Positions 17,285-36,765 of a DNA stretch of 64,000 nt are shown here, piece by piece. A program made the position numbers and the translations under genes. The notes below the pieces were generated by a model that was given only the letters and a program-made list of their open reading frames with translations, did not search any database and was not told where the DNA came from. Every line of letters starts with the position of its first letter. Position 1 is the stretch's first letter. Location: the NCBI RefSeq assembly GCF_003334355.1, contig NZ_QOWP01000010.1; one strand, 5' to 3'. Origin of the DNA: Escherichia coli. Its GTDB lineage: Bacteria; Pseudomonadota; Gammaproteobacteria; Enterobacterales; Enterobacteriaceae.

Positions 17285-17444
17285 TGAGTCACTCTCTATG
17301 ACAGATGTAATTAATTAAGCAGCATAATGATAATGCGTAAGGGCACCCAGAAGTTTTACCCATCTTTACGCATTTGATCTGGAACAGGTTTAACAGCGGA
17401 TTATCAGGTCATTAAGCAAATATAACGCCCTGAGAATTTCGACA

Positions 17445-17480
17445 GGCAAAAGAAAAAGGGGTTAGCATTTAGCTAACCCC
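17445..17480 (-). terminator. Intrinsic terminator downstream of serT
   Basis: Stem ggggttagcatttagctaacccc (17458..17480); read on the minus strand it is followed by a T-run. Confidence 0.75.
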
Positions 17481-17490
17481 TTATCTTATT

Positions 17491-17578
17491 TGGCGGAAGC
17501 GCAGAGATTCGAACTCTGGAACCCTTTCGGGTCGCCGGTTTTCAAGACCGGTGCCTTCAACCGCTCGGCCACACTTCC
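17491..17578 (-). tRNA. serT: tRNA-Ser (anticodon UGA)
   Basis: Reverse complement reads GGAAGTGTGGCCGAGCGGTTGAAGGCACCGGTCTTGAAAACCGGC...CTTCCGCCA: 88 nt with long variable arm, encoded CCA and UGA anticodon. Confidence 0.93.
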
Positions 17579-18004
17579 GGAATGACGCGCACTATAAACA
17601 TCCCGATGCGGCGTGTAAACCCCTAATTTGTTTGTTTGCCTGAAAAACAGCCAAAAGTGCATTGATAGCGTGAAATAACAGCAGATTGATCATTTCATCA
17701 CCATGAATTCCTTCTCTTTTACTCGTTTAGCAACCGGCTAAACATCCCCACCGCCCGGCCAAAAGAAAAATAGGTCCATTTTTATCGCTAAAAGATAAAT
17801 CCACACAGTTTGTATTGTTTTGTGCAAAAGTTTCACTACGCTTTATTAACAATACTTTCTGGCGACGTGTGCCAGTGCAGAAGGATGAGCTTTCGTTTTC
17901 AGCATCTCACGTGAAGCGATGGTTTGCCTTGCTACAGGGACGTCGCTTGCCGACCATAAGCGCCCGGTGTCCTGCCGGTGTTGCTAGGAGAAGAGACGTG
18001 CGAT

Positions 18005-19123
18005 ATGAATAACGAGGAAACATTTTACCAGGCCATGCGGCGTCAGGGCGTTACCCGGCGCAGCTTTCTCAAATATTGTAGTCTGGCTGCCACGTCGCTG
18101 GGATTAGGCGCGGGAATGGCACCAAAGATTGCCTGGGCGCTGGAGAACAAACCGCGCATTCCGGTGGTATGGATCCACGGTCTGGAATGCACCTGCTGTA
18201 CCGAATCTTTTATCCGCTCCGCTCACCCACTGGCGAAGGACGTCATCCTTTCCCTTATTTCTCTCGATTACGACGATACTTTGATGGCTGCCGCCGGAAA
18301 CCAGGCGGAAGAAGTCTTTGAAGACATCATCACGCAATACAATGGCAAATATATCCTCGCAGTAGAAGGCAATCCGCCGCTGGGCGAGCAGGGGATGTTC
18401 TGTATCAGCAGCGGTCGACCGTTTATTGAGAAACTCAAACGTGCCGCTGCCGGAGCCAGCGCGATTATCGCCTGGGGAACCTGCGCGTCCTGGGGCTGCG
18501 TGCAGGCCGCGCGGCCCAATCCGACGCAGGCAACGCCTATCGACAAAGTCATCACCGACAAACCCATTATCAAAGTACCTGGCTGCCCGCCGATCCCGGA
18601 TGTGATGAGCGCCATCATTACTTACATGGTGACCTTTGATCGCTTGCCAGATGTCGACAGAATGGGCCGTCCACTGATGTTTTATGGTCAGCGTATCCAT
18701 GATAAATGCTATCGCCGCGCTCACTTCGACGCCGGAGAGTTCGTCCAGAGTTGGGATGATGACGCTGCCCGCAAAGGTTACTGCCTGTACAAAATGGGCT
18801 GCAAAGGGCCTACCACCTATAACGCCTGTTCCTCCACACGCTGGAATGATGGCGTTTCTTTTCCAATCCAGTCTGGTCACGGCTGCCTGGGCTGTGCGGA
18901 AAATGGTTTCTGGGATCGCGGTTCGTTCTACAGCCGCGTGGTCGATATTCCGCAAATGGGTACTCATTCCACCGCCGATACCGTCGGTTTAACCGCGCTT
19001 GGCGTGGTGGCAGCGGCTGTTGGTGTGCACGCAGTCGCCAGCGCCGTTGACCAGCGCAGACGTCATAACCAGCAACCTACAGAAACCGAACATCAGCCAG
19101 GCAATGAGGATAAACAGGCATGA
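18005..19123 (+). CDS. hyaA: Hydrogenase 1 small subunit HyaA (372 aa), Tat signal peptide
   Basis: ATG at 18005 ([29 protein letters not shown]...) with twin-arginine motif; FeS-cluster Cys ligands; track ORF starts 9 codons earlier. Confidence 0.94.
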
Positions 19124-20913
19124 GCACTCAGTACGAAACTCAGGGATACACCATCAATAATGCCGGACGCCGCCTGGTGGTCGACCCGATTACGCGCATC
19201 GAAGGCCACATGCGCTGCGAAGTGAATATTAACGATCAGAATGTGATCACCAATGCCGTCTCCTGCGGCACCATGTTTCGCGGGCTGGAGATCATCCTAC
19301 AAGGGCGCGACCCGCGCGATGCGTGGGCGTTCGTTGAACGTATCTGCGGCGTCTGTACTGGCGTACACGCCCTGGCTTCGGTTTACGCCATCGAAGATGC
19401 TATCGGTATTAAAGTGCCGGACAACGCCAATATCATCCGCAACATTATGCTGGCAACGCTCTGGTGCCACGATCATCTGGTGCACTTCTATCAGCTTGCC
19501 GGGATGGACTGGATCGATGTGTTAGATGCGCTGAAAGCCGACCCGCGGAAAACCTCCGAACTGGCGCAAAGTCTCTCCTCTTGGCCGAAATCATCCCCTG
19601 GCTATTTCTTCGACGTACAAAACCGCCTGAAAAAATTTGTTGAAGGCGGGCAGTTGGGGATCTTCCGCAATGGCTACTGGGGGCACCCGCAGTACAAACT
19701 GCCGCCAGAAGCTAACCTGATGGGCTTTGCCCACTATCTCGAAGCTCTCGATTTCCAGCGTGAAATTGTCAAAATCCACGCGGTCTTTGGCGGTAAAAAC
19801 CCGCATCCAAACTGGATTGTCGGCGGGATGCCTTGCGCCATCAACATTGACGAAAGCGGCGCGGTCGGGGCAGTCAATATGGAACGCCTGAACCTGGTGC
19901 AGTCAATTATCACCCGCACGGCGGACTTCATTAACAACGTGATGATCCCCGACGCCTTAGCCATCGGTCAGTTCAACAAACCGTGGAGCGAAATCGGCAC
20001 TGGTCTTTCTGATAAATGCGTTCTCAGCTACGGCGCATTCCCGGATATTGCCAACGACTTTGGCGAGAAAAGTCTGCTGATGCCTGGCGGCGCGGTGATT
20101 AACGGCGACTTCAACAATGTGCTGCCAGTGGATTTGGTTGATCCGCAGCAGGTGCAGGAGTTTGTCGACCACGCCTGGTATCGATATCCCAACGATCAGG
20201 TCGGGCGTCATCCGTTCGATGGCATCACCGACCCGTGGTACAACCCCGGCGATGTCAAAGGCAGCGATACCAACATTCAGCAGCTGAATGAACAGGAACG
20301 CTACTCGTGGATCAAAGCGCCACGCTGGCGCGGTAACGCGATGGAAGTGGGGCCGCTGGCGCGCACGTTAATCGCTTATCACAAAGGCGATGCTGCGACC
20401 GTTGAGTCGGTCGATCGCATGATGTCGGCGTTGAACCTGCCGCTTTCCGGTATCCAGTCAACGTTAGGCCGCATTTTGTGCCGCGCGCACGAAGCGCAGT
20501 GGGCCGCAGGTAAGTTGCAGTATTTCTTCGACAAGCTGATGACCAACCTGAAAAACGGCAATCTCGCCACTGCTTCCACGGAAAAATGGGAACCTGCAAC
20601 CTGGCCGACAGAGTGCCGTGGCGTCGGCTTTACCGAAGCGCCGCGCGGGGCGTTAGGCCACTGGGCCGCCATTCGCGATGGCAAGATTGATCTCTACCAG
20701 TGCGTGGTACCGACCACCTGGAACGCCAGCCCGCGCGATCCCAAAGGGCAGATTGGCGCTTATGAAGCGGCGCTGATGAACACCAAAATGGCGATCCCCG
20801 AGCAACCGCTGGAGATCCTGCGTACTCTGCACAGCTTTGATCCGTGCCTCGCCTGTTCAACACACGTGCTGGGCGACAACGGTAGCGAGCTGATCTCCGT
20901 GCAGGTGCGTTAA
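19120..20913 (+). CDS. hyaB: Hydrogenase 1 [NiFe] large subunit HyaB (597 aa)
   Basis: Full-length ORF with N-terminal RxCGxC and C-terminal DPCxxC Ni-binding motifs; ATGA overlap with hyaA. Confidence 0.95.
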
Positions 20914-20931
20914 CAGCGAAGGAGAATCATC

Positions 20932-21639
20932 ATGCAACAGAAAAGCGACAACGTTGTCAGCCACTATGTCTTTGAAGCGCCAGTCCGTATCTGGCACTGG
21001 CTGACGGTGTTATGCATGGCGGTGTTGATGGTCACCGGTTACTTTATCGGCAAGCCGCTACCTTCCGTCAGCGGCGAGGCGACGTATCTGTTCTATATGG
21101 GCTACATCAGGTTGATTCACTTCAGCGCCGGGATGGTTTTTACCGTGGTCTTGCTGATGCGGATCTACTGGGCTTTTGTTGGCAATCGATACTCCCGCGA
21201 GCTGTTTATCGTGCCGGTATGGCGTAAAAGCTGGTGGCAGGGCGTGTGGTATGAAATTCGCTGGTATCTGTTTCTGGCAAAACGTCCGAGTGCCGATATA
21301 GGCCATAACCCCATCGCCCAGGCGGCGATGTTCGGCTATTTCCTGATGTCGGTCTTTATGATCATCACCGGCTTTGCGCTGTACAGCGAACACAGCCAGT
21401 ACGCTATTTTTGCGCCGTTCCGTTATGTGGTGGAATTTTTCTACTGGACGGGTGGCAACTCAATGGACATTCACAGCTGGCATCGGCTGGGGATGTGGCT
21501 GATTGGCGCGTTTGTGATCGGTCATGTCTACATGGCGCTGCGTGAAGACATCATGTCCGACGACACGGTGATCTCCACCATGGTCAACGGCTACCGTAGC
21601 CACAAATTTGGCAAAATAAGTAACAAGGAGCGTTCATGA
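20932..21639 (+). CDS. hyaC: Hydrogenase 1 cytochrome b subunit HyaC (235 aa)
   Basis: Full-length 235-aa membrane ORF with conserved His ligands. Confidence 0.93.
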
Positions 21640-22223
21640 GCGAGCAACGCGTGGTGGTCATGGGGCTGGGCAACCTGCTGTGGGCCGATGAAGGCTTCGG
21701 CGTGCGGGTGGCGGAACGGCTGTATGCCCATTACCACTGGCCCGAGTATGTGGAGATTGTCGATGGCGGTACTCAGGGACTGAACTTGCTGGGGTATGTC
21801 GAAAGCGCCAGCCATCTGTTGATTCTCGATGCCATTGACTACGGGCTGGAACCTGGAACGCTGCGAACCTATGCCGGAGAACGCATTCCGGCTTATCTCA
21901 GCGCGAAGAAAATGAGCCTGCATCAGAACAGTTTCTCCGAAGTGTTGGCGCTGGCGGATATCCGCGGACATCTGCCAGCACATATTGCCCTCGTCGGTCT
22001 GCAACCCGCAATGCTCGACGACTACGGCGGTAGCCTGAGCGAACTGGCACGGGAGCAACTGCCCGCTGCGGAACAGGCGGCGCTGGCGCAGCTTGCTGCG
22101 TGGGGAATTGTGCCGCAACCGGCTAATGAATCGCGCTGTCTCAATTATGACTGTCTGTCGATGGAAAATTACGAAGGCGTTCGCTTGCGCCAGTACCGGA
22201 TGACACAGGAGGAGCAGGGATGA
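21636..22223 (+). CDS. hyaD: Hydrogenase 1 maturation endopeptidase HyaD (195 aa)
   Basis: Full-length ORF; ATGA overlap with hyaC. Confidence 0.92.
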
Positions 22224-22618
22224 GCAACGACACGCCATTTGATGCGTTGTGGCAACGAATGCTGGCGCGCGGCTGGACGCCAGTCAGTGAATCCCGTCTT
22301 GACGACTGGCTTACGCAAGCGCCAGACGGCGTGGTGTTATTAAGCAGTGACCCGAAACGCACGCCAGAGGTCAGCGATAATCCGGTAATGATTGGCGAAT
22401 TACTGCGCGAGTTTCCCGACTATACATGGCAGGTGGCGATTGCTGACCTTGAGCAGAGCGAAGCCATCGGCGATCGCTTTGGCGTCTTTCGCTTTCCTGC
22501 CACTTTAGTATTTACCGGCGGAAACTATCGCGGCGTGCTGAATGGTATTCACCCGTGGGCGGAACTGATAAACCTGATGCGCGGGCTTGTCGAACCGCAG
22601 CAGGAGCGTGCCTCATGA
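22220..22618 (+). CDS. hyaE: Hydrogenase 1 chaperone HyaE (132 aa)
   Basis: Full-length ORF; ATGA overlap with hyaD. Confidence 0.9.
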
Positions 22619-23472
22619 GCGAAACTTTTTTCCATCTGCTGGGGCCAGGAACGCAACCGAACGATGACAGTTTCAGCATGAATCCACTGCCGATCACCTG
22701 TCAGGTGAATGATGAACCGAGTATGGCGGCCCTGGAGCAATGTGCTCACAGCCCGCAGGTGATTGCGCTGTTAAACGAGTTACAACATCAACTAAGCGAA
22801 CGCCAACCGCCGTTGGGCGAGGTGCTGGCAGTCGATCTGTTAAATCTCAACGCCGACGATCGTCACTTTATCAATACGCTTCTCGGGGAAGGGGAAGTGT
22901 CAGTGCGCATTCAGCAGGCTGACGACAGTGAAAGTGAAATACAGGAGGCGATCTTCTGCGGATTATGGCGGGTGCGCAGACGTCGCGGCGAAAAGTTGCT
23001 GGAGGACAAACTGGAGGCTGGCTGCGCGCCGCTGGCGTTGTGGCAGGCGGCAACGCAAAATCTCTTGCCGACAGATTCGCTGTTACCGCCGCCCATTGAT
23101 GGCCTGATGAATGGCCTACCGTTGGCGCATGAGTTACTGGCACATGTACGTAACCCCGACGCGCAGCCGCACAGCATTAATCTGACGCAATTACCCATCA
23201 GCGAGGCTGATCGGCTTTTTCTCTCACGTCTCTGTGGGCCGGGAAATATTCAGATTCGTACCATTGGCTATGGCGAGAGCTATATCAACGCCACGGGGTT
23301 ACGCCATGTCTGGCATTTACGCTGTACGGACACCTTAAAAGGCCCGTTACTGGAAAGTTATGAAATCTGCCCAATACCGGAAGTGGTGCTGGCAGCGCCA
23401 GAAGATTTGGTCGACTCTGCGCAGCGGCTTAGCGAGGTATGTCAGTGGCTGGCGGAAGCTGCACCGACGTAA
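22615..23472 (+). CDS. hyaF: Hydrogenase 1 maturation protein HyaF (285 aa)
   Basis: ATG at 22615 ([18 protein letters not shown]...) overlapping the hyaE stop; track ORF is 5'-extended. Confidence 0.9.
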
Positions 23473-23605
23473 AAAGACGGTAAGTATCGCTTTCAGTCTT
23501 ATGAATATCGCAATCGGCGAATACCTCTGGTCGTAGAGTTTCAGGATAAAGAGGGAGATCTACCATTATCGGGTTATTTTTCTCTCTTCGCCTACAGGAG
23601 TGCGC

Positions 23606-25150
23606 ATGTGGGATGTCATTGATTTATCGCGCTGGCAGTTTGCTCTGACCGCGCTGTATCACTTTTTATTTGTACCCCTTACCCTGGGGCTGATTTTTTT
23701 GCTGGCTATCATGGAAACCATTTACGTGGTCACCGGCAAAACAATCTACCGCGATATGACGCGCTTCTGGGGTAAGCTCTTCGGTATCAATTTTGCTCTT
23801 GGCGTGGCTACCGGCCTGACCATGGAGTTTCAGTTTGGTACTAACTGGTCATTCTATTCCAACTATGTGGGCGATATTTTTGGCGCACCACTGGCGATGG
23901 AAGCATTAATGGCCTTCTTCCTCGAATCCACCTTTGTCGGGCTGTTCTTCTTCGGCTGGCAACGGCTGAATAAATACCAGCACCTGCTGGTGACGTGGCT
24001 GGTGGCGTTCGGTTCAAATCTCTCTGCGTTGTGGATATTGAATGCCAACGGTTGGATGCAATACCCGACCGGTGCGCATTTTGATATCGACACCCTGCGT
24101 ATGGAGATGACCAGCTTCAGCGAGCTGGTCTTTAATCCGGTCAGCCAGGTGAAATTTGTGCACACCGTAATGGCGGGCTACGTGACCGGGGCCATGTTTA
24201 TTATGGCGATCAGCGCCTGGTATTTACTGCGCGGACGGGAGCGCGATGTCGCATTACGCTCGTTTGCCATCGGTTCCGTCTTCGGTACTCTGGCGATTAT
24301 CGGTACCCTGCAACTCGGAGACAGTTCTGCGTATGAAGTCGCGCAAGTACAACCGGTAAAACTGGCGGCGATGGAAGGGGAGTGGCAAACGGAGCCTGCA
24401 CCTGCACCGTTCCATGTGGTTGCCTGGCCGGAACAGGATCAAGAGCGTAACGCCTTTGCCCTCAAAATTCCCGCGCTGCTAGGGATCCTCGCCACTCACT
24501 CATTAGATAAACCCGTGCCGGGTCTGAAGAATTTGATGGCTGAAACCTACCCACGCTTGCAACGCGGACGTATGGCCTGGCTGTTAATGCAGGAAATATC
24601 GCAAGGCAATCGTGAGCCGCATGTGTTGCAGGCATTCCGGGAACTGGAAGGTGACCTGGGCTACGGCATGTTGCTCTCCCGCTATGCGCCGGATATGAAT
24701 CATGTCACAGCCGCACAGTACCAGGCGGCGATGCGTGGCGCGATACCTCAGGTTGCGCCGGTATTCTGGAGTTTCCGCATCATGGTGGGCTGTGGTTCCC
24801 TGCTGCTACTGGTGATGCTGATTGCGCTTGTCCAGACGCTGCGTGGCAAAATCGACCAGCATCGCTGGGTGCTGAAAATGGCGCTCTGGAGTTTGCCCTT
24901 GCCGTGGATTGCGATTGAAGCCGGGTGGTTTATGACCGAGTTTGGTCGTCAGCCGTGGGCGATACAGGACATCTTACCGACATACTCCGCGCACTCCGCT
25001 TTAACCACAGGACAACTGGCTTTCTCACTGATCATGATCGTAGGGCTTTACACCCTGTTCTTAATCGCCGAAGTCTACCTGATGCAGAAATATGCCCGTC
25101 TGGGGCCGAGCGCGATGCAGAGTGAACAACCGACGCAGCAACAGGGGTAA
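23606..25150 (+). CDS. appC: Cytochrome bd-II oxidase subunit I AppC (514 aa)
   Basis: ATG at 23606 ([28 protein letters not shown]...); CydA-like membrane protein. Confidence 0.94.
23998..24005 (+). other. Chi site (GCTGGTGG)
   Basis: Exact octamer inside appC; a second copy lies at 25272-25279 inside appB. Confidence 0.6.
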
Positions 25151-25161
25151 AGGAGAAAATC

Positions 25162-26298
25162 ATGTTTGATTATGAAACATTGCGCTTCATCTGGTGGCTG
25201 CTGATTGGCGTGATCCTGGTGGTCTTTATGATCTCCGACGGATTTGACATGGGGATCGGCTGTCTGCTGCCGCTGGTGGCGCGTAATGATGATGAACGCC
25301 GGATAGTGATAAACAGCGTTGGTGCACACTGGGAAGGCAACCAGGTCTGGTTGATCCTCGCTGGTGGGGCATTATTTGCCGCCTGGCCCAGAGTGTATGC
25401 AGCGGCGTTTTCCGGCTTTTATGTGGCGATGATCCTGGTGCTGTGCTCACTGTTCTTCCGCCCGCTGGCCTTTGATTATCGCGGAAAAATCGCCGATGCA
25501 CGCTGGCGTAAAATGTGGGACGCCGGTCTGGTCATCGGCAGTCTGGTGCCGCCGGTAGTCTTCGGTATCGCCTTCGGCAACTTGTTGCTCGGCGTGCCGT
25601 TTGCCTTCACACCGCAATTACGCGTGGAGTATCTCGGCAGCTTCTGGCAACTGCTGACGCCATTCCCTTTATTGTGCGGATTGCTCAGCCTTGGGATGGT
25701 GATTTTGCAAGGTGGCGTCTGGTTACAACTGAAAACTGTTGGTGTGATTCATCTGCGTTCACAGCTGGCCACCAAACGCGCTGCACTGTTGGTGATGCTG
25801 TGCTTTTTGCTGGCGGGTTACTGGCTGTGGGTCGGTATTGATGGCTTTGTACTGCTCGCCCAGGATGCTAACGGTCCTTCCAATCCGTTAATGAAACTGG
25901 TGGCAGTGCTACCTGGTGCCTGGATGAATAATTTCGTCGAATCGCCCGTTTTGTGGATCTTCCCGCTGCTGGGGTTCTTCTGCCCATTGCTGACGGTGAT
26001 GGCGATTTATCGTGGTCGCCCGGGTTGGGGATTTTTAATGGCGTCATTGATGCAATTTGGCGTGATTTTCACGGCAGGCATCACGCTGTTCCCCTTTGTC
26101 ATGCCGTCAAGTGTGAGTCCAATCTCCAGCCTGACGTTGTGGGACAGTACTTCCAGTCAGCTGACGCTGAGCATTATGTTGGTAATCGTGCTGATATTTT
26201 TGCCCATTGTGTTGCTCTACACTCTCTGGAGCTACTACAAAATGTGGGGACGCATGACAACAGAAACTCTCCGCCGTAACGAAAACGAGTTGTACTAA
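25162..26298 (+). CDS. appB: Cytochrome bd-II oxidase subunit II AppB (378 aa)
   Basis: Full-length CydB-like membrane ORF 12 bp after appC. Confidence 0.94.
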
Positions 26299-26310
26299 GG
26301 AGCAGGAACA

Positions 26311-26403
26311 ATGTGGTATTTACTTTGGTTCGTCGGCATTTTGTTGATGTGTTCGCTCTCCACCCTTGTGTTGGTATGGCTGGACCCGCGTCTGAAAAGT
26401 TAA
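26311..26403 (+). CDS. appX: Cytochrome bd-II small subunit AppX (30 aa)
   Basis: ATG at 26311 after AGGAGCAGG; translation MWYLLWFVGILLMCSLSTLVLVWLDPRLKS (single transmembrane helix); absent from the ORF track because it is under 60 codons. Confidence 0.8.
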   Translation: MWYLLWFVGILLMCSLSTLVLVWLDPRLKS

Positions 26404-26408
26404 CGAAC

Positions 26409-26447
26409 GTAGGCCTGATGCGGCGCATTAGCATCGCATCAGGCAAT
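26409..26447. repeat. REP (repetitive extragenic palindromic) element
   Basis: gtaggcctgatgcggcgcattagcatcgcatcaggca: imperfect palindrome of the GCCTGATGCG REP family between appX and appA. Confidence 0.7.
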
Positions 26448-26482
26448 CAATAATGTCAGATATGAAAAGCGGAAACATATCG

Positions 26483-27781
26483 ATGAAAGCGATCTTAATC
26501 CCATTTTTATCTCTTCTGATTCCGTTAACCCCGCAATCTGCATTCGCTCAGAGTGAGCCGGAGCTGAAGCTGGAAAGTGTGGTGATTGTCAGTCGTCATG
26601 GTGTGCGTGCTCCAACCAAGGCCACGCAACTGATGCAGGATGTCACCCCAGACGCATGGCCAACCTGGCCAGTAAAACTGGGTTGGCTGACACCGCGCGG
26701 TGGTGAGCTAATCGCCTATCTCGGACATTACCAACGCCAGCGTCTGGTAGCCGACGGATTGCTGGCGAAAAAGGGCTGCCCGCAGTCTGGTCAGGTCGCG
26801 ATTATTGCTGATGTCGACGAGCGTACCCGTAAAACAGGCGAAGCCTTCGCCGCCGGGCTGGCACCTGACTGTGCAATAACCGTACATACCCAGGCAGATA
26901 CGTCCAGTCCCGATCCGTTATTTAATCCTCTAAAAACTGGCGTTTGCCAACTGGATAACGCGAACGTGACTGACGCGATCCTCAGCAGGGCAGGAGGGTC
27001 AATTGCTGACTTTACCGGGCATCGGCAAACGGCGTTTCGCGAACTGGAACGGGTGCTTAATTTTCCGCAATCAAACTTGTGCCTTAAACGTGAGAAACAG
27101 GACGAAAGCTGTTCATTAACGCAGGCATTACCATCGGAACTCAAGGTGAGCGCCGACAATGTCTCATTAACCGGTGCGGTAAGCCTCGCATCAATGCTGA
27201 CGGAGATATTTCTCCTGCAACAAGCACAGGGAATGCCGGAGCCGGGGTGGGGAAGGATCACCGATTCACACCAGTGGAACACCTTGCTAAGTTTGCATAA
27301 CGCGCAATTTTATTTGCTACAACGCACGCCAGAGGTTGCCCGCAGCCGCGCCACCCCGTTATTAGATTTGATCAAGACAGCGTTGACGCCCCATCCACCG
27401 CAAAAACAGGCGTATGGTGTGACATTACCCACTTCAGTGCTGTTTATCGCCGGACACGATACTAATCTGGCAAATCTCGGCGGCGCACTGGAGCTCAACT
27501 GGACGCTTCCCGGTCAGCCGGATAACACGCCGCCAGGTGGTGAACTGGTGTTTGAACGCTGGCGTCGGCTAAGCGATAACAGCCAGTGGATTCAGGTTTC
27601 GCTGGTCTTCCAGACTTTACAGCAGATGCGTGATAAAACGCCGCTGTCATTAAATACGCCGCCCGGAGAGGTGAAACTGACCCTGGCAGGATGTGAAGAG
27701 CGAAATGCGCAGGGCATGTGTTCGTTGGCAGGTTTTACGCAAATCGTGAATGAAGCACGCATACCGGCGTGCAGTTTGTAA
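26483..27781 (+). CDS. appA: Periplasmic acid phosphatase/phytase AppA (432 aa)
   Basis: ATG at 26483 (MKAILIPFLSLLIPLTPQSAFA signal peptide) and histidine acid phosphatase RHGVRAP motif. Confidence 0.94.
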   Translation: MKAILIPFLSLLIPLTPQSAFAQSEPELKLESVVIVSRHGVRAPTKATQLMQDVTPDAWPTWPVKLGWLTPRGGELIAYLGHYQRQRLVADGLLAKKGCPQSGQVAIIADVDERTRKTGEAFAAGLAPDCAITVHTQADTSSPDPLFNPLKTGVCQLDNANVTDAILSRAGGSIADFTGHRQTAFRELERVLNFPQSNLCLKREKQDESCSLTQALPSELKVSADNVSLTGAVSLASMLTEIFLLQQAQGMPEPGWGRITDSHQWNTLLSLHNAQFYLLQRTPEVARSRATPLLDLIKTALTPHPPQKQAYGVTLPTSVLFIAGHDTNLANLGGALELNWTLPGQPDNTPPGGELVFERWRRLSDNSQWIQVSLVFQTLQQMRDKTPLSLNTPPGEVKLTLAGCEERNAQGMCSLAGFTQIVNEARIPACSL

Positions 27782-27792
27782 TGCATAAAAAA

Positions 27793-27818
27793 GAGCATTC
27801 AGTTACCTGAATGCTCTG
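27793..27818. terminator. Terminator hairpin between convergent appA and etk (intrinsic for the minus-strand gfc-etp-etk transcript)
   Basis: Inverted repeat agagcattcag/ctgaatgctct; the U-tract is on the minus strand only (aaaaaa at 27787-27792). Confidence 0.65.
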
Positions 27819-27850
27819 AGGCTGATGACAAACGAAGAACTGTCTAATGC

Positions 27851-27887
27851 GTAGACCGGAAAAGGCGTTCACGCCGCATCCGGCCAC
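27851..27887. repeat. REP element
   Basis: gtagaccggaaaaggcgttcacgccgcatccggccac, REP-family palindrome. Confidence 0.7.
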
Positions 27888-27895
27888 TTTCAGTT

Positions 27896-30076
27896 TTACT
27901 CTTTCTCGGAGTAACTATAACCGTAATAGTTATAGCCGTAACTGTAAGCGGTGCTGGCGCGTTTAATCACACCATTGAGGATAGCGCCTTTAATATTGAC
28001 GCCTGCCTGTTCCAGACGCTGCATTGACAAACTCACCTCTTTGGCGGTGTTCAAGCCAAAACGCGCAACCAGCAGGCTGGTGCCAACAGAACGCCCCACG
28101 ACCGCGGCATCACTCACCGCCAGCATCGGCGGCGTATCGACAATCACCAGATCGTAATGGTCGTTCGCCCATTCCAGTAATTGACGCATCCGATCGCGCA
28201 TCAGCAGTTCAGACGGGTTAGGTGGCACCTGACCGCGAGTAATCACATCAAAGCCTCCTTTGCCAAAATGCTGGATCACTTTGTTGAGCTCATCTTTACC
28301 TGCCAGATATTCCGACAAGCCATGTTCATTACTCACGGTAAACAGGTTATGCGAATAACCACGGCGTAAGTCGGCATCAATAAATAACACTTTTTGATCG
28401 GACTGGGCGATCACCGCTGCCAGAGTTGAACTGACAAACGTTTTACCACCGTCTGGCGTCGCACCGGTGATCATCAGAATGTTATTCTCCGTCTCCATCA
28501 TAGCGAAATGCAGACTGGTTCGTAGCGCACGTACGGCTTCCACAGCAGAATCCGCCGGGTTATCCGCCGCCAGGAAGGGGATATTTTTAGTACGATGGCG
28601 CTGCTGATTAGAAAATAAATTTTTCTTACGCAGACGGGTGCGTTTATCCAGCCACTCGGACATTGGGATAGTGGCATAAACGCTGATGCCGTGCTCTTCC
28701 AGTTGTTCCGGGGCTTCTACACCACGACGCAACATCGCACGCGCCAGCACGGCACCCACAGAAATAAACAGGCCAAGAATAAAACCAAGCACCACGTTCA
28801 ACGCTTTTTTCGGTTTCACTGGCTGCGGCTGAGTGACTGCCGGGTCGATAATCCGCACGTTACCAATGGCACTGGATTTCGAAATACTCAACTCCTGCTG
28901 GCGGTTAAGTAATTGCAGATATACCGCACGGCCCGCTTCTACGTCACGACTTAAACGCAACACTTCCTGTTGGGTGGAAGGCATTGCCGATACCCGCTTA
29001 TTCAGGCGTTTGCGTTCTTGCTCCAGCGTCTGGCGTTTTTCCAGCAGCGCACGATAAGTTGGGTGATCTTTCTTATACAGCTGGGAGATCTCTGCCTCGC
29101 GGAAGGTCAGCTCATTGAGTTGATTATCAACGTTCACAATCTGCTCAAGAACGGCTTTGGCTTCCAGGTTAAGGTCAACCGAATCGCGCTGCTGGCGATA
29201 AACGTTGAGTTTTTCTTCCGCTTGGTCCAGCTCGCTGCGCACTTCAGGTAACTGGCGCTGTAAGAATTCAAGGCTTTGTGAATCCTGCGCCGCCTGGCGA
29301 GCGATATTCTGTTGCAAATAGTTGTTAGCGATGCTGTTCAGAATACGAGTAATCAACTGGGGATCATCACCAGTCATGGTAAGTTCCAGCATCCCGCTTT
29401 CTTTACTGCGTTCGCTAACGGTAAAGGTTTCCTGCAATGCGTTAATCGCTTCCAGTTCGGTACGCTGGCTCAGGACAAACTGTGTTCCTGGTTTGGCCTT
29501 AATGTCCGCGATAGTCAGCGCAACGCCATCTTTTTCCAGACGCTGGCCGACCATACCATTGACGGTGAACTCTTCACCTTCCAGTGTATAGTGGCCGTTT
29601 TCCCCAACCGTGAGTGTCAGTTGCTGATCCTGACCATTCAGTTGTGGAATATGCATCCAGCTGATCGCCAGCTCACCTGGTTTTTCTTTGGTTAATCTCG
29701 CCCAGCCGCGACCCACAATCGGAAAATACTTCTGCTCAACTATGTCGCGCAGATTCAGTTCAGCAATGGTTTTACCGAGAATCATGCGCGATTGCAGCAG
29801 TTGGATCTCCGGTGCAGACTCGGGCGATGAGTTAGGGATCATATCGCTCAGGCCGCTGAGAATGGCGTTGCCCTGTTTTTGCTCAACCTGGACCAGAGTA
29901 TCTGCCTGATAAATTGGTGTGCTTAACAGCGAGTAAGCGACAGCGATCAGCGTGAATAACGCGGTCACGCTGATAATAAACTTACGGTGATCCCATAACT
30001 CGCCGACCAGACGAAGCAGATCGATCTCATTTTCCTGAGTGCTGCCTGGTGGCGTATTCATATTTTTAGTTGTCAT
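27896..30076 (-). CDS. etk: BY-kinase tyrosine autokinase Etk (726 aa), group 4 capsule/polysaccharide co-polymerase
   Basis: Full-length ORF; two transmembrane segments, Walker A/B ATPase domain and C-terminal tyrosine cluster YSYGYNYYGYSYSEKE. Confidence 0.94.
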   Translation of the reverse strand: MTTKNMNTPPGSTQENEIDLLRLVGELWDHRKFIISVTALFTLIAVAYSLLSTPIYQADTLVQVEQKQGNAILSGLSDMIPNSSPESAPEIQLLQSRMILGKTIAELNLRDIVEQKYFPIVGRGWARLTKEKPGELAISWMHIPQLNGQDQQLTLTVGENGHYTLEGEEFTVNGMVGQRLEKDGVALTIADIKAKPGTQFVLSQRTELEAINALQETFTVSERSKESGMLELTMTGDDPQLITRILNSIANNYLQQNIARQAAQDSQSLEFLQRQLPEVRSELDQAEEKLNVYRQQRDSVDLNLEAKAVLEQIVNVDNQLNELTFREAEISQLYKKDHPTYRALLEKRQTLEQERKRLNKRVSAMPSTQQEVLRLSRDVEAGRAVYLQLLNRQQELSISKSSAIGNVRIIDPAVTQPQPVKPKKALNVVLGFILGLFISVGAVLARAMLRRGVEAPEQLEEHGISVYATIPMSEWLDKRTRLRKKNLFSNQQRHRTKNIPFLAADNPADSAVEAVRALRTSLHFAMMETENNILMITGATPDGGKTFVSSTLAAVIAQSDQKVLFIDADLRRGYSHNLFTVSNEHGLSEYLAGKDELNKVIQHFGKGGFDVITRGQVPPNPSELLMRDRMRQLLEWANDHYDLVIVDTPPMLAVSDAAVVGRSVGTSLLVARFGLNTAKEVSLSMQRLEQAGVNIKGAILNGVIKRASTAYSYGYNYYGYSYSEKE

Positions 30077-30095: not shown

Positions 30096-30542
30096 TTACC
30101 GGCTGAGGCGCTTCGCCCATTCCTGACTGGCGCGCTCCAACATACCGTAGACATGTTCAAATGCGTCCTGACTTTTACGATAGGGATCCGGGATCTCTTT
30201 CTGTTCCAGCCATTGCCCAAACAGCATTGTCTTCCCGCGGACCTCGGGAGCAATTGCGGTAACCTGAGCAATATGTTCCGACTCCATTGCCAGAATCAGA
30301 TCGTAATTTCGTGCCATCTCAGCAGTGAGCTTACGTCCGGCATGTCCTTCAAGAGATACGCCATGATTAGCGGCAACATCTGCCGCTGTCGCATCTGCAG
30401 GGTGTTTTACCAGACCATGAACACCTGCCGATTTGACTTTTACGCCCGGCAGACGTTTACGCAGCAAGCGCTCGCCAATGGGCGAACGGCAAATGTTGCC
30501 GGTACAAACCACCAGGATTGAGTTAAATTTTAGTTGGGCCAT
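30096..30542 (-). CDS. etp: Low-molecular-weight protein-tyrosine phosphatase Etp (148 aa)
   Basis: Internal Met [27 protein letters not shown] (CX5R P-loop) of track ORF 30096..30554. Confidence 0.92.
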
Positions 30543-31669
30543 GTTTGAATCCACCGTGAAGTCTCTGTCAGGTCATGCACCCCGGAAATCGTCGGTACCA
30601 GCAGAGAAATCACACGGTTCCAACGAGCCAGCGGCGCGGTAGTGACATAAACAATGTCGTAAGGTTCAAGCTGGAATTCCGTTCCGAGTATCATTGCCGA
30701 TGCGTCCTTCGCATTCAGCTGATAAATATTGGCGATTTTGCCATTCTGCTTGTTTTGCGTTGCACGAATAACAAAAATCCCCGTCGCATCAGCGACATCC
30801 TGATTCATACCCTCAGCGTTACCCAGCGCTTCCGCCAGGGTCATACCGCTGCGGTCCATTTTCAGCGTGCTCTGTTTACCCACTTCACCCATCACGAAGA
30901 CTTTCAGATCATCGTTGCGCGGAATAAATAAAATATCGCCCGGGTGCAGCAGTTTGTTCTGGCGCAAGTCGCCACGCTGCATCAGCGCATAGAGGTTCAC
31001 TTTGGTCTTTACGCCATTCTGGGTGAGCACCACGTTGCGCCAGTCTGCATCTGCGGTCAGACCGCCCGCGGCGTTAATCGCATCCATGATGGTCAGAGGA
31101 ATATTGGTAATCGGCTGCTGACCCGATTTGCTGACTTCGCCGGTGACGTACGCTTTTTGCGATCGGAACGCCGCGACGCTGACATCGACTTGCGGGCTTT
31201 CAATGACTGAATCGAGACGCGCTGTAATCTCGTTGCGTACCTGGGTAAGTGTTTTCCCGGCCACTTTCAGGCGACCAATATAGGGGTAGAAAATCGCACC
31301 ATCGGCGTTAACCCAGTTGCCGGTATCACTGGCGCTACGGTATTGCCCTGCGGGGGTGGTTAGTTCCGGGTGATCCCAGACCGTAACCATCAACACATCA
31401 CCAATCCCGATACGATATTCATAGTTTGCGATTTGCTGCTCCAGCTCCGGGTTAGCCTGCGACATAATCGGTTTGGCGCGCAACTGATCAATCAATCCTG
31501 GCGTGACGGGATAGATATTGACCATTTTGTCCAGGTCATACTGATTGTCAGGTAGTTCAATGACATCCTTGTTACTGGTCGATAAATTCTGACCAGGAAC
31601 AAGGGTACATGCTGTCAAAGACAGAACAGCCAATGTCAGTACCGAAAACTTAAAAATGTTCTTTTTCAT
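30530..31669 (-). CDS. gfcE: Outer-membrane polysaccharide export lipoprotein GfcE (Wza paralogue, 379 aa)
   Basis: Internal Met [21 protein letters not shown] (lipobox) of track ORF 30530..31690; 3' end overlaps etp start by 13 bp. Confidence 0.92.
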
Positions 31670-31714
31670 TGGTTTATATTTATCAGTCAATGTAATGTTA
31701 TGAATTACGTCAGG

Positions 31715-35304: not shown

Positions 35305-35613
35305 TTAGCGTGTAGTGGACGTGGTGGTTGAGGTGTTATGAGAACCGCCATCGCCACTGTCATTTGCTGCAACAACTGCCAACGTCGCCACACCAACAGC
35401 CGTTGCCACACCGACAACTGTCGCCGTGCCGACAGCGCCAGCAGCCACGCCACCAGTGGTAGTAGCAGCAGTCGTGGTTGCGCCGGTAGTGGTCGTTGTG
35501 GTGCCAGTAGTACCCGTCGTTGCATCGGTCCCGTTTGTTGCTTCAGGGGCAGCAAACGCAGCTGGCGTCGTCAACATGAAGGCCATAAGGATTGCAGAAA
35601 GCTTGTGTTTCAT
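35305..35613 (-). CDS. gfcA: Thr/Ala/Gly-rich small secreted protein GfcA (101 aa)
   Basis: Internal Met MKHKLSAILMAFMLTTPAAFA of track ORF 35305..35631; low-complexity TTGTTGTTTTTTGATTTAATTTGG core. Confidence 0.88.
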   Translation of the reverse strand: MKHKLSAILMAFMLTTPAAFAAPEATNGTDATTGTTGTTTTTTGATTTAATTTGGVAAGAVGTATVVGVATAVGVATLAVVAANDSGDGGSHNTSTTTSTTR

Positions 35614-36054
35614 AACTTTTCCTTTATTCATCGCATGGACAATACGTACGCTTGAGATCAGGATTGTCTACTTTGAGTATAACATCCTTGTGAAATCTCC
35701 CTTTCCTCATACCGCTTGCACTATATACTGCGGGTAGGAAAGGCGCGCAGAGGGAAATATAAGATTGTTAACTATCCCCCTCTGGAAATACGACTTGTGA
35801 GCATAAGATAAATCTTAGCAAAATACGAATTAAAGATAAGGAAATTGTTACGAAAGCTATTAATTATTGTTGGTAATATAGTTTTAAGTGGTACTATAAC
35901 TGGCTGTTAAATGGCATTTATAACTATTAGGTGCAGAGATATTCGCTTAAATGGATTAGTTTCTTTGTGGAAAAGTAACTGATGTTATAATGTATGATGT
36001 TGACTATTGCACTATTCCAATAAAACCAGTCAGCTTTAAACAAGCAGCGTCATA

Positions 36055-36267
36055 TTAAGAGAGATAAACATTTGCCGCTGTTGGTCCTCGCAGGCCATTT
36101 ACGCGGCAAAATTCCACACGTAATCCTGGTATAAGCACTTCTGCGTCGCGGGGAGTGAATGCGGAAATATGGACCTGAACTTCTTTACGACCGTCGGAGG
36201 GGATAATGAATCCTTTGCCGCTTTTGCGATCAAAGGTTTTGACAATTCCTGTCATTTTACGGGACAA
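36055..36267 (-). CDS. cspH: CspA-family cold-shock-like protein CspH (70 aa)
   Basis: Full-length cold-shock domain [40 protein letters not shown]. Confidence 0.92.
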
Positions 36268-36552
36268 ACAAATTCCTTACTGAAAATACTGCGCTGCACT
36301 ATACGGGGTTAATAAAATAAAGCCAGCGATATTTAAGACCGCCGGACGGCTAAAATAAAATTTGCTTAATCTCAATTATCATGCGTTAATAGCTGCGTCG
36401 GTTTGAAAGACAGACAGCATACAAAGTAGTTTACTAAAGCAGTTCTCATTATCAGGCATTATCCCCTTCTTTTGAGTCTCTCTCCTGAACACTAAGTAGT
36501 TTCTGTATTAAAGCCCTGTTTGCCGAAAGGCCCAAAATGAAGGAAGTAAAAT

Positions 36553-36765
36553 ATGTCTAATAAAATGACTGGTTTAGTAAAATGGTTTAACGCAGATAAA
36601 GGTTTTGGCTTTATCACTCCTGATGATGGCAGCAAAGACGTTTTCGTCCATTTCACCGCCATCCAGAGCAATGAATTCCGCACGCTGAACGAAAATCAGA
36701 AAGTTGAATTTTCTATTGAGCAGGGGCAACGTGGCCCCGCGGCAGCGAACGTTGTTACGCTCTAA
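36553..36765 (+). CDS. cspG: Cold-shock protein CspG (70 aa)
   Basis: Full-length cold-shock domain [41 protein letters not shown] with RNP motifs. Confidence 0.95.

Follow-up and report, generated by a model that had tools for sequence, protein, structure and literature searches.

Among the textbook respiratory enzymes of E. coli are hydrogenase 1 and cytochrome bd-II, and the operons encoding them are already known as neighbours on its chromosome. In strain K-12 MG1655 these are hyaABCDEF (b0972-b0977) and appCBXA (b0978, b0979, b4592, b0980). The window analysed here, a stretch of 64,000 nucleotides from another E. coli strain (contig NZ_QOWP01000010.1), carries the same genes in the same order and with the same lengths, hyaABCDEF occupying positions 18005-23472 and appC-appB-appX-appA positions 23606-27781. 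The hya and app proteins of the two strains are 99.6-100% identical, four ATGA overlaps between hya genes and a 133-bp spacer between hyaF and appC are likewise present in K-12, the spacer being identical base for base, and no substantive difference was found inside the hya-app block. Within the window, the differences between this strain and K-12 all lie outside the block, and consist of an IS3 element beside gfcB and of gfcE and yccE as pseudogenes. What has been learned in K-12 about the regulators AppY, YdeO, ArcA and RpoS applies directly. A search of 5426 complete E. coli genomes found the block in 5413, and strain PSS-12 of E. coli is 100% identical to this chromosomal region over 10.5 kb. 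A reading of the locus as two adjacent, co-regulated operons with separate promoters and a leaky boundary between them is the one that we favour, with moderate confidence.

The hya and app genes

In a profile search, nine of the ten hya and app genes passed the curated NCBIfam cut-offs (Table 1). The exception was HyaF, which was matched by no NCBIfam model; as no such model exists or matched, its assignment rests on identity rather than on a profile. All the elements of an E. coli-type hya operon were found, with a Tat-dependent small subunit (twin-arginine signal domain at residues 16-45 of HyaA, 26.8 bits against a cut-off of 16.7), a Hyd-1 large subunit, cytochrome b, protease and HyaE in order, and HyaF in sixth place. 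HyaB is of the Hyd-1 and not the Hyd-2 type, scoring only 551 bits with the Hyd-2 model NF007778 (cut-off 969). Similarly, AppC belongs to bd-II rather than bd-I, for which model NF011677 gave 794.8 bits (cut-off 968), and subunits I, II and the small subunit X each match a bd-II equivalog. Annotation, profiles and the K-12 comparison thus agree with the identities, hya followed by app, given in a prior sequence-only reading of this DNA, whose label of known biology was also apt, the neighbouring operons and their common regulators having been documented already. The limits which it drew require revision. Its starting point, 17579, is the base after tRNA-Ser, so that a promoter and 5' UTR stretch of 426 bp was included ahead of the true hyaA start at 18005, whilst its end point, 26298, is the appB stop codon and leaves outside both appX and appA, which it had named as part of appCBXA. 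The full block, bounded by the start of hyaA and the stop of appA, measures 9.8 kb and not the 8.7 kb claimed.

Table 1. Features of the hya-app region, in window coordinates, with profile scores and curated cut-offs where a model matched
Feature	Position	Strand	Evidence or remark
tRNA-Ser	17491-17578	minus	borders hyaA upstream region
hyaA upstream region: promoter and ~155-nt 5' UTR	17579..18004	+	between tRNA-Ser and hyaA ATG
hyaA, hydrogenase 1 small subunit, 372 aa, Tat signal	18005..19123	+	TIGR00391, 673.9 bits (cut-off 179.5)
hyaB, [NiFe] large subunit, 597 aa	19120..20913	+	NF007550 equivalog, 1440.9 bits (cut-off 1101)
hyaC, b-type cytochrome subunit	20932..21639	+	NF007551, 537.3 bits (cut-off 442)
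hyaD, maturation endopeptidase	21636..22223	+	NF007616, 441.8 bits (cut-off 261)
hyaE	22220..22618	+	NF008563, 285.6 bits (cut-off 210)
hyaF, last (sixth) hya gene, 285 aa	22615..23472	+	100% identical to K-12 HyaF, WP_000004899.1
hyaF-appC intergenic region, 133 bp: appC promoter and 5' UTR, without terminator	23473..23605	+	
upstream block conserved across Escherichia species	23485..23525	+	alignment, motif positions
-10-like core promoter block GATCTACCATTAT (TACCAT or CATTAT preceded by C)	23557..23569	+	under AppY summit 23561
5' UTR segment TCGCCTACAGGAGT with appC Shine-Dalgarno (AGGAG, 23596-23600)	23588..23601	+	
appC (cbdA), cytochrome bd-II subunit I	23606..25150	+	NF011609 equivalog, 1200.4 bits (cut-off 1025)
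appB (cbdB), cytochrome bd-II subunit II	25162..26298	+	NF011602, 832.8 bits (cut-off 681)
appX (cbdX), 30-aa accessory subunit	26311..26403	+	NF011333, 80.8 bits (cut-off 57)
REP-type palindrome GCCTGATGCG...CGCATCAGGC	26412..26445		within 79-nt appX-appA spacer
appA, periplasmic acid phosphatase/phytase, last app gene	26483..27781	+	NF007552, 844.3 bits (cut-off 585)
11-bp hairpin between convergent appA and etk	27792..27817		terminator scan

The ATGA overlaps link hyaA to hyaB (19120-19123), hyaC to hyaD (21636-21639), hyaD to hyaE (22220-22223) and hyaE to hyaF (22615-22618). Four such overlaps had indeed been reported, but as consecutive, whereas only three stand in a row: hyaC starts 18 nt past hyaB and has a GGAG Shine-Dalgarno sequence of its own. 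The window annotation contains 27 tightly spaced same-strand gene pairs, seven of which overlap by 4 nt, with four of the seven located within hya. Since four of the five hya pairs overlap in this manner, against 3 of 22 elsewhere in the window, hya is unusually tightly packed; packing of this kind is common among operons for multi-subunit complexes. With these overlaps, and with a Shine-Dalgarno sequence within the upstream gene ahead of every start codon, hya is translated as a tightly coupled unit, from a transcript that begins at a promoter ~155 nt 5' of hyaA. Within the hyaA upstream region an ArcA site, TTGTTAATAAAGCGTAGT, has been placed at -18 to +3 relative to the transcription start (PMC3798270 supplement) and is seen in the window sequence at about 17832-17852, and an AppY ChIP-seq summit at MG1655 position 1031990 (PMC10057817) corresponds to window position 17856.

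In the app genes, appB starts 11 nt past appC. The REP-type palindrome gave a weak match to the REP-derived Rfam family naRNA4 (E 0.57), well under the gathering score. The sole strong hairpin 3' of the app genes is that between appA and etk, and it is assigned to etk as its terminator because the T-run is on the minus strand; a Term-seq 3' end on that strand, at MG1655 1041921 (PMC7815308 supplement), corresponds to window position 27787.

The hyaF-appC junction

The distance from the hyaF stop at 23472 to the appC start at 23606 is exactly the 133 bp reported previously. What had been overlooked is that this gap is the appC promoter and not an empty spacer. Of the 5426 complete E. coli genomes, 5420 retain it undivided. 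Binding of activators within the spacer has been observed directly: an AppY ChIP-seq summit at MG1655 1037695, with 43.9-fold enrichment (PMC10057817), falls at window position 23561, over a block, GATCTACCATTA, whose conservation extends from Escherichia to Edwardsiella, and YdeO gives a ChIP-chip signal at the appC promoter region (PMC4222967). A PappC-gfp fusion is induced by AppY (PMC10057817), and an appC-lacZ fusion is induced by YdeO, the isolated region being sufficient for inducibility (PMC4222967). An independent appC promoter in the spacer is therefore established by occupancy and reporter fusions from the literature, to which the conservation of its core, computed here, can be added.

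Three parts of the spacer are conserved. The first, at its upstream end, contains a TATCGC direct repeat with copies 21 bp apart (23485 and 23506) and a TTTCA...TGAA dyad, from which we infer a putative activator-binding site; the YdeO-box consensus is ATTTCA (PMC4222967). The second, the core block, is conserved as GATCTAC(C/T)ATTA in all Escherichia and in all four Edwardsiella loci, and would supply the -10 element, with transcription predicted to start near 23573-23577. The third, TCGCCTACAGGAGT, is identical in Escherichia and Edwardsiella (E 2e-4). The 133 bp would thus be wholly taken up by the appC promoter, comprising the upstream block, the -10-like block and a 5' UTR of ~30 nt with a conserved Shine-Dalgarno sequence. 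Two further candidates were set aside. An inverted repeat, AGAGGGAGA...UCUCUCU (23548-23588), spans the -10 block and was rejected as a terminator or regulatory hairpin; its four Escherichia versions fold no better than shuffled sequences (z -0.5 to -1.6). For the published 8-bp AppY motif ATGSCWGM, the sole match, at 23559-23566 of the minus strand, has one mismatch and was not counted as evidence.

The absence of an obvious terminator, also noted in the sequence-only reading, was borne out by three independent checks, namely a consensus scan, a permissive hairpin scan and a comparison of folding with shuffled sequences. The consensus scan detected no intrinsic-terminator-like site on the plus strand between 23212 and 23766. 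The permissive scan for a hairpin with a U-tail returned gap hairpins of only 0 to -1 kcal/mol, so that no G+C-rich hairpin with an immediate U-tract follows hyaF (best gap hairpin -1 kcal/mol), and positions 23455-23610 fold no better than shuffles (z -0.28). No RNA family was found in the spacer by Rfam at a permissive threshold. As for Rho, no loading stretch, that is a C-rich, G-poor and untranslated segment of ~80 nt, was present in any 78-nt window starting in the gap (C/G 0.62-1.0), this being a test of base composition and not of Rho dependence in vivo. With neither a terminator feature nor a Rho-loading stretch at the junction, read-through is the reasonable default expectation. In the two Term-seq lists of Adams 2021 (PMC7815308 supplement), the interval from serT to the etk terminator contains no called 3' end, but their silence is uninformative because the cultures were aerobic and both operons are then barely expressed. 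The supplements of SMRT-Cappable-seq and TERMITe have no hya or app entry, a full-text literature search on a hyaF-appC terminator, co-transcription or read-through returned no statement on the junction, and neither a junction-spanning transcript nor a mapped 3' end at hyaF-appC was found in the published material searched.

The boundary could nonetheless be insulated, with hya transcripts ending in or just past the spacer by a mechanism invisible to such scans and with functional read-through negligible. Candidate mechanisms are Rho acting on the untranslated 133-nt stretch of RNA, AppY or RNA polymerase acting as a roadblock at the appC promoter, and RNase cleavage. The heavy activator occupancy of the spacer is in keeping with such a roadblock, and hyaABCDEF and appCBA count as two transcription units in papers quoting RegulonDB (PMC4222967). 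However, the spacer has no hairpin with a U-tract, it is G-rich rather than C-rich and so poor for Rho loading, the good Shine-Dalgarno sequence ahead of appC should quickly reload ribosomes, and no 3' end has been called here in the Term-seq lists, albeit at low expression. We consider insulation unlikely, although to be taken seriously.

RNA levels across the two operons

Per-gene raw counts from the S1 table of PMC10057817, converted here to reads per kb, allow the two operons to be compared. They describe steady-state RNA in an aerobically grown rpoS deletion strain overproducing AppY, and not the physiological anaerobic condition. Under AppY induction the density was 3417 for hyaA, 846 for hyaB, 570 for hyaF, 2097 for appC, 4548 for appB and 2627 for appA; it thus drops ~6-fold from hyaA to hyaF and then climbs 3- to 12-fold at appC and appB. 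Over three replicates the appC/hyaF ratio was 3.0-4.6 and the appB/hyaF ratio 4.8-12.1. It follows from the former that at most 22-33% of the appC RNA could derive from hya in these cells, and from the step up past hyaF that most app RNA under AppY induction comes from the appC promoter. The description of the locus as one block, made by the sequence-only reading, consequently holds in so far as the genes are adjacent and co-regulated, but the AppY summit in the spacer, the reporter fusions and the 3- to 12-fold RNA step divide it into two operons with separate promoters.

On the favoured reading of a leaky boundary, RNA polymerases at the end of hyaF would be expected to run on into appC, but few would reach that point, whilst the appC promoter would be much stronger under the same signals (AppY, YdeO, RpoS and anaerobiosis). 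Read-through would then add a little to app expression without driving it. As to both occurrence and size, we infer that leakage from hya into app probably takes place, and that it is ordinary and probably minor. Uninduced cells offer some support for insulation instead: there, appC/hyaF density was 0.12-0.39 and appB/hyaF 0.63-0.85, on low counts of 12-55 reads per gene. Taken at face value, the lower density of appC implies that most RNA covering hyaF stops short of the end of appC, through some termination or decay.

Under anaerobic conditions the balance shifts, the hya signal (log2 14) being higher than that of app (log2 12.5) (PMC3798270 supplement), so that in this case the upper bound places no tight limit on the share of read-through. 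Under anaerobic or acid conditions, with the hyaA promoter strongly active, much of the app mRNA might be the tail of a ~10-kb transcript running from hyaA to appA, with the appC promoter as an internal booster. Such a conditional super-operon would be consistent with the lack of a terminator at the junction, with the maintenance of the hyaF-appC-appB order beyond Escherichia and with the behaviour of an arcA mutant, in which hya and app are both down about 4-fold, although the ArcA ChIP peak is at hyaA only, with no peak listed for appC (PMC3798270 supplement). The arcA effect on app has, however, been attributed by the authors of that study to ArcA control of appY. The fall in density along hya and its rise at appC and appB under AppY induction, the ability of the appC promoter region alone to render reporters inducible, and hairpins between hya and app in relatives also count against this arrangement, which we regard as improbable.

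Were read-through sizeable, some regulatory effects credited to the appC promoter would be due in part to polarity from the hyaA promoter; an example is the dependence of app on ArcA, roughly 4-fold, with no ArcA site listed there. An insertion or deletion in hya with a polar effect could then also reduce cytochrome bd-II, which matters when hya mutants are interpreted. The stakes are very small, amounting to a specialist caveat and not a discovery.

Comparison with related loci

The hyaF-appC-appB order is common to Escherichia, Edwardsiella and one Citrobacter. Edwardsiella (piscicida, anguillarum, hoshinae and ictaluri) retains hyaE-hyaF-appC-appB, with HyaF 76-77% and AppC 90-91% identical to the E. 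coli proteins, and shares both the promoter core GATCTACTATTA and the 5' UTR segment. Its hyaF-appC spacer is 398-533 bp long, in contrast to 133 bp in E. coli, and contains an additional gene for a 65-aa rubredoxin-like protein, the ATG of which overlaps the hyaF stop; no remnant of this gene was found in the E. coli spacer or in the whole window (best E about 1). A strong hairpin of -23 to -32 kcal/mol, without a U-tract, follows the rubredoxin-like gene, and three of the four species have about 140 additional nt separating the promoter core from appC. In Citrobacter sp. On2M the gene order is again the same (HyaF 73% and AppC 87% identical), whilst hyaF and appC are 88 bp apart, no GATCTACYATTA block can be recognised, and in the spacer a hairpin of -20.7 kcal/mol precedes a U-rich tail (UGACGUUUUCUU), resembling an intrinsic terminator.

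The hairpins of these relatives (-20.7 to -32 kcal/mol, z -4.3 to -5.2) are strong but were not flagged by a strict terminator scan; their role as terminators is putative, and only that of Citrobacter has a U-rich tail. Their equivalent position suggests, from sequence comparison, that insulation may have been selected elsewhere, and separation of hya and app thus appears to be favoured in the relatives, which lends some weight to an insulated boundary in E. coli also. A different possibility is that Escherichia lost the insulating hairpin of its relatives, and perhaps the rubredoxin gene too, so that read-through became a selected coupling and a substantial share of anaerobic or acid bd-II mRNA is the tail of a ~10-kb transcript from the hyaA promoter. 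This would tie the amount of oxidase to that of hydrogenase, and would account for ArcA-dependent app expression without a listed ArcA ChIP peak at appC, yet we judge it to be improbable. A leaky boundary between separately promoted operons remains our preferred reading of the E. coli locus.

Looking further afield, the membrane-bound uptake [NiFe]-hydrogenase operons of the hup/hox type also comprise, in this order, genes for a small subunit, a large subunit, cytochrome b, a protease and accessory proteins, closely packed with stop/start overlaps. Some of them include a rubredoxin gene of the HupI/HoxR type, as does the Edwardsiella locus. To our knowledge, no operon of this type has a cytochrome bd oxidase operon behind it, and the linkage of the two, as seen in E. 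coli and its relatives, is an enterobacterial feature.

Gene order and packing

The hya and app genes are probably best regarded as two operons, co-regulated but each with its own promoter, that meet at a boundary without a terminator, with a low level of read-through likely across it and app expressed mainly from its own promoter. The 17400-27900 stretch (10.5 kb) is 100% identical to that of E. coli PSS-12 and is found at a coverage of at least 80% in 5413 of 5426 complete E. coli genomes. Genes were assigned from the RefSeq annotation of PSS-12 and K-12 MG1655, with reading frames verified on the window. Nine of the ten hya/app proteins score above the curated NCBIfam cut-offs for exactly their families, using models which tell Hyd-1 from Hyd-2 and bd-II from bd-I; HyaF, for which there is no NCBIfam model, is identical to K-12 HyaF. 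Elsewhere in PSS-12, at approximate window positions converted from its record, a small ORF immediately upstream of gfcB is interrupted by an IS3-family element (~35530-36700), and gfcE (~30530-31670, internal stop) and yccE (~50385-51630, frameshift and stop) are annotated as pseudogenes.

Genes of the hya-app locus, with RNA-seq read densities (reads per kb) where available
Feature	Position	Strand	Basis	AppY overproduced	Vector control
tRNA-Ser	17491-17578	-	RefSeq annotation		
hyaA	18005-19123	+	RefSeq annotation, frame verified	3417	6
hyaB	19120-20913	+	RefSeq annotation, frame verified	846	35
hyaC	20932-21639	+	RefSeq annotation, frame verified	544	
hyaD	21636-22223	+	RefSeq annotation, frame verified	659	
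hyaE	22220-22618	+	RefSeq annotation, frame verified	734	
hyaF	22615-23472	+	RefSeq annotation, frame verified	570	55
appC	23606-25150	+	RefSeq annotation, frame verified	2097	14.5
appB	25162-26298	+	RefSeq annotation, frame verified	4548	39
appX/cbdX	26311-26403	+	RefSeq annotation, frame verified	6269	
appA	26483-27781	+	RefSeq annotation, frame verified	2627	42
etk (convergent)	from 27896	-	RefSeq annotation		

The sequence-only reading rightly described this arrangement as known biology, which it already is, and its 133-bp hyaF-appC gap is exact. Its span for the block, 17579-26298, is not: the first coordinate is merely the base after tRNA-Ser and the last is the end of appB, so that appX and appA, both named in that reading, fall outside. 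The four ATGA overlaps it reported do exist (hyaA/B, C/D, D/E and E/F) but are not consecutive, since 18 nt separate hyaB and hyaC. A Shine-Dalgarno sequence lies within the preceding gene for every downstream start codon, a placement which fits translational coupling. Among the window's annotated genes, 27 neighbouring pairs are closely spaced on the same strand; 7 of these overlap by 4 nt, four of them in hya. The packing of hya is thus tighter than that of its neighbours, yet in a style common to operons encoding complexes.

The hyaF-appC gap as a promoter

The 133-bp gap is the promoter of appC. The AppY ChIP-seq summit (43.9-fold enrichment) at MG1655 position 1037695 (PMC10057817) corresponds to 23561 in the window, the offset of 1014134 being confirmed at both hyaA and hyaF, and AppY induces a PappC-gfp fusion (PMC10057817). 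YdeO gives a ChIP-chip signal at the appC promoter region and induces an appC-lacZ fusion, albeit with no in vitro binding to the appC promoter fragment (PMC4222967). Earlier work cited there describes the promoter as RpoS-dependent and AppY-induced.

Under the AppY summit lies GATCTACCATTA (23557-23568), which recurs as GATCTAC(C/T)ATTA in every Escherichia species and all four Edwardsiella species compared. This block is a candidate -10 element (TACCAT, or CATTAT preceded by C), predicting a transcription start near 23573-23577. Collinear with it, and identical in Escherichia and Edwardsiella, is TCGCCTACAGGAGT, the 5' UTR segment with the appC Shine-Dalgarno sequence. A second block, conserved in Escherichia, directly follows the hyaF stop codon (23485-23525); its two TATCGC copies, at a spacing of 21 bp, and its TTTCA/TGAA dyad make it a plausible activator site. 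Together the promoter elements would fill the whole 133 bp and leave no space for a terminator. Of 5426 complete E. coli genomes, 5420 have the junction as a single unbroken piece; the search gave 5423 matches, five on plasmid-typed records, with six complete genomes lacking a match.

An inverted repeat, AGAGGG...CCCTCT (23548-23588), straddles the -10-like block in all Escherichia versions. Both arms would occur together only in a read-through transcript, and CUCUU of the pyrimidine arm could pair with the appC Shine-Dalgarno sequence. The repeat may nevertheless be nothing, as it folds no better than shuffled sequences (z -0.5 to -1.6).

The earlier observation that no obvious terminator follows hyaF stands. 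A consensus scan of the plus strand found no hairpin with T-run at 23212-23766, and a permissive scan of the gap (stem at least 4, loop at most 10, weak U-tail) yielded hairpins of 0 to -1 kcal/mol at best. The RNA of 23455-23610 folds no more stably than shuffles (z -0.28), and an Rfam search of the gap at E up to 1 gave no match. Nor is the gap C-rich: C/G is 0.62-1.0 across all 78-nt windows starting within it, making it a poor Rho-loading site by composition. At the downstream end of app, an 11-bp hairpin (27792-27817) corresponds to the mapped etk 3' end on the opposite strand. Two REP-type palindromes, one between appX and appA (26412-26445) and one downstream of appA after the etk-terminator hairpin (27851-27886), match the REP-derived naRNA4 family of Rfam weakly, well below the gathering score. 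Across the first of them, between appX and appA, read density drops 2.4-fold.

Transcription across the boundary

Some data sets of long reads and of 3' ends have no entry for hya or app. The Adams 2021 Term-seq lists, from aerobic cultures in which the operons are nearly silent, contain no 3' end on either strand from serT to the etk terminator. The most informative figures are raw per-gene RNA-seq counts (S1 table of PMC10057817), converted here to reads per kb. With AppY overproduced, appC exceeds hyaF 3.0- to 4.6-fold and appB exceeds it 4.8- to 12-fold across three replicates. Even if all hyaF transcripts continued, read-through would account for at most 22-33% of appC RNA, so the remainder must originate within the gap. 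In the vector control, appC is only 0.12-0.39 of hyaF, which hints that some RNA over hyaF does not continue into appC; counts there are small, however, and appB is again at 0.63-0.85 of hyaF. A boundary insulated via Rho, a roadblock or RNA processing would accommodate this, but is considered unlikely.

Within hya, density under AppY induction declines 4- to 6-fold from hyaA to hyaB and hyaC-hyaF despite the ATGA coupling, whilst the hyaA/hyaB pattern is reversed in uninduced cells. Within hyaA there is a weak terminator-like site (18838-18855), but sites of this kind are about as frequent as chance predicts.

In anaerobic cultures the hya signal (log2 14) exceeds that of app (log2 12.5; PMC3798270 supplement), so the read-through ceiling is not restrictive under anaerobiosis. 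Mutation of arcA lowers both operons about 4-fold, with an ArcA ChIP peak listed only at hyaA (PMC3798270 supplement). For app, the authors explain the fall by ArcA control of appY (PMC3798270); it could alternatively be a consequence of read-through from hya. A condition-dependent hya-app super-operon is, even so, the least probable of the readings, and two co-regulated operons remain the preferred one.

The boundary in related species

A HyaF scan of one genome per species yielded 12 loci. The order hyaE-hyaF-appC-appB is shared by five Escherichia lineages, four Edwardsiella species and Citrobacter sp. On2M, so the linkage of hya and app predates Escherichia. Escherichia sp. MOD1-EC7003 (L004:4815-5330) has naturally kept hya while the app operon is deleted. 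Only a short remnant of appC (residues 143-202, 78% identity) separates its hyaF from etk, etp and gfcE.

Escherichia spacers measure 133-138 bp, whilst those of Edwardsiella, at 398-533 bp, include a 65-aa rubredoxin-like gene absent from Escherichia; the window holds no detectable remnant of it. This gene lies at 4851-5048 of Edwardsiella locus L008 and at equivalent positions in L009, L010 and L011, with its ATG overlapping the hyaF stop codon (ATGTTTGA), and its product matches the rubredoxin model at E 1.2e-13, below the equivalog cut-off. Relatives tend to carry a strong hairpin between the hya and app units, in contrast to Escherichia, whose spacers have none. In Edwardsiella the rubredoxin-like gene is succeeded by a hairpin of -23 to -32 kcal/mol that lacks a U-tract, and in Citrobacter sp. 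On2M the 88-bp spacer holds a hairpin of -20.7 kcal/mol with a U-rich tail.
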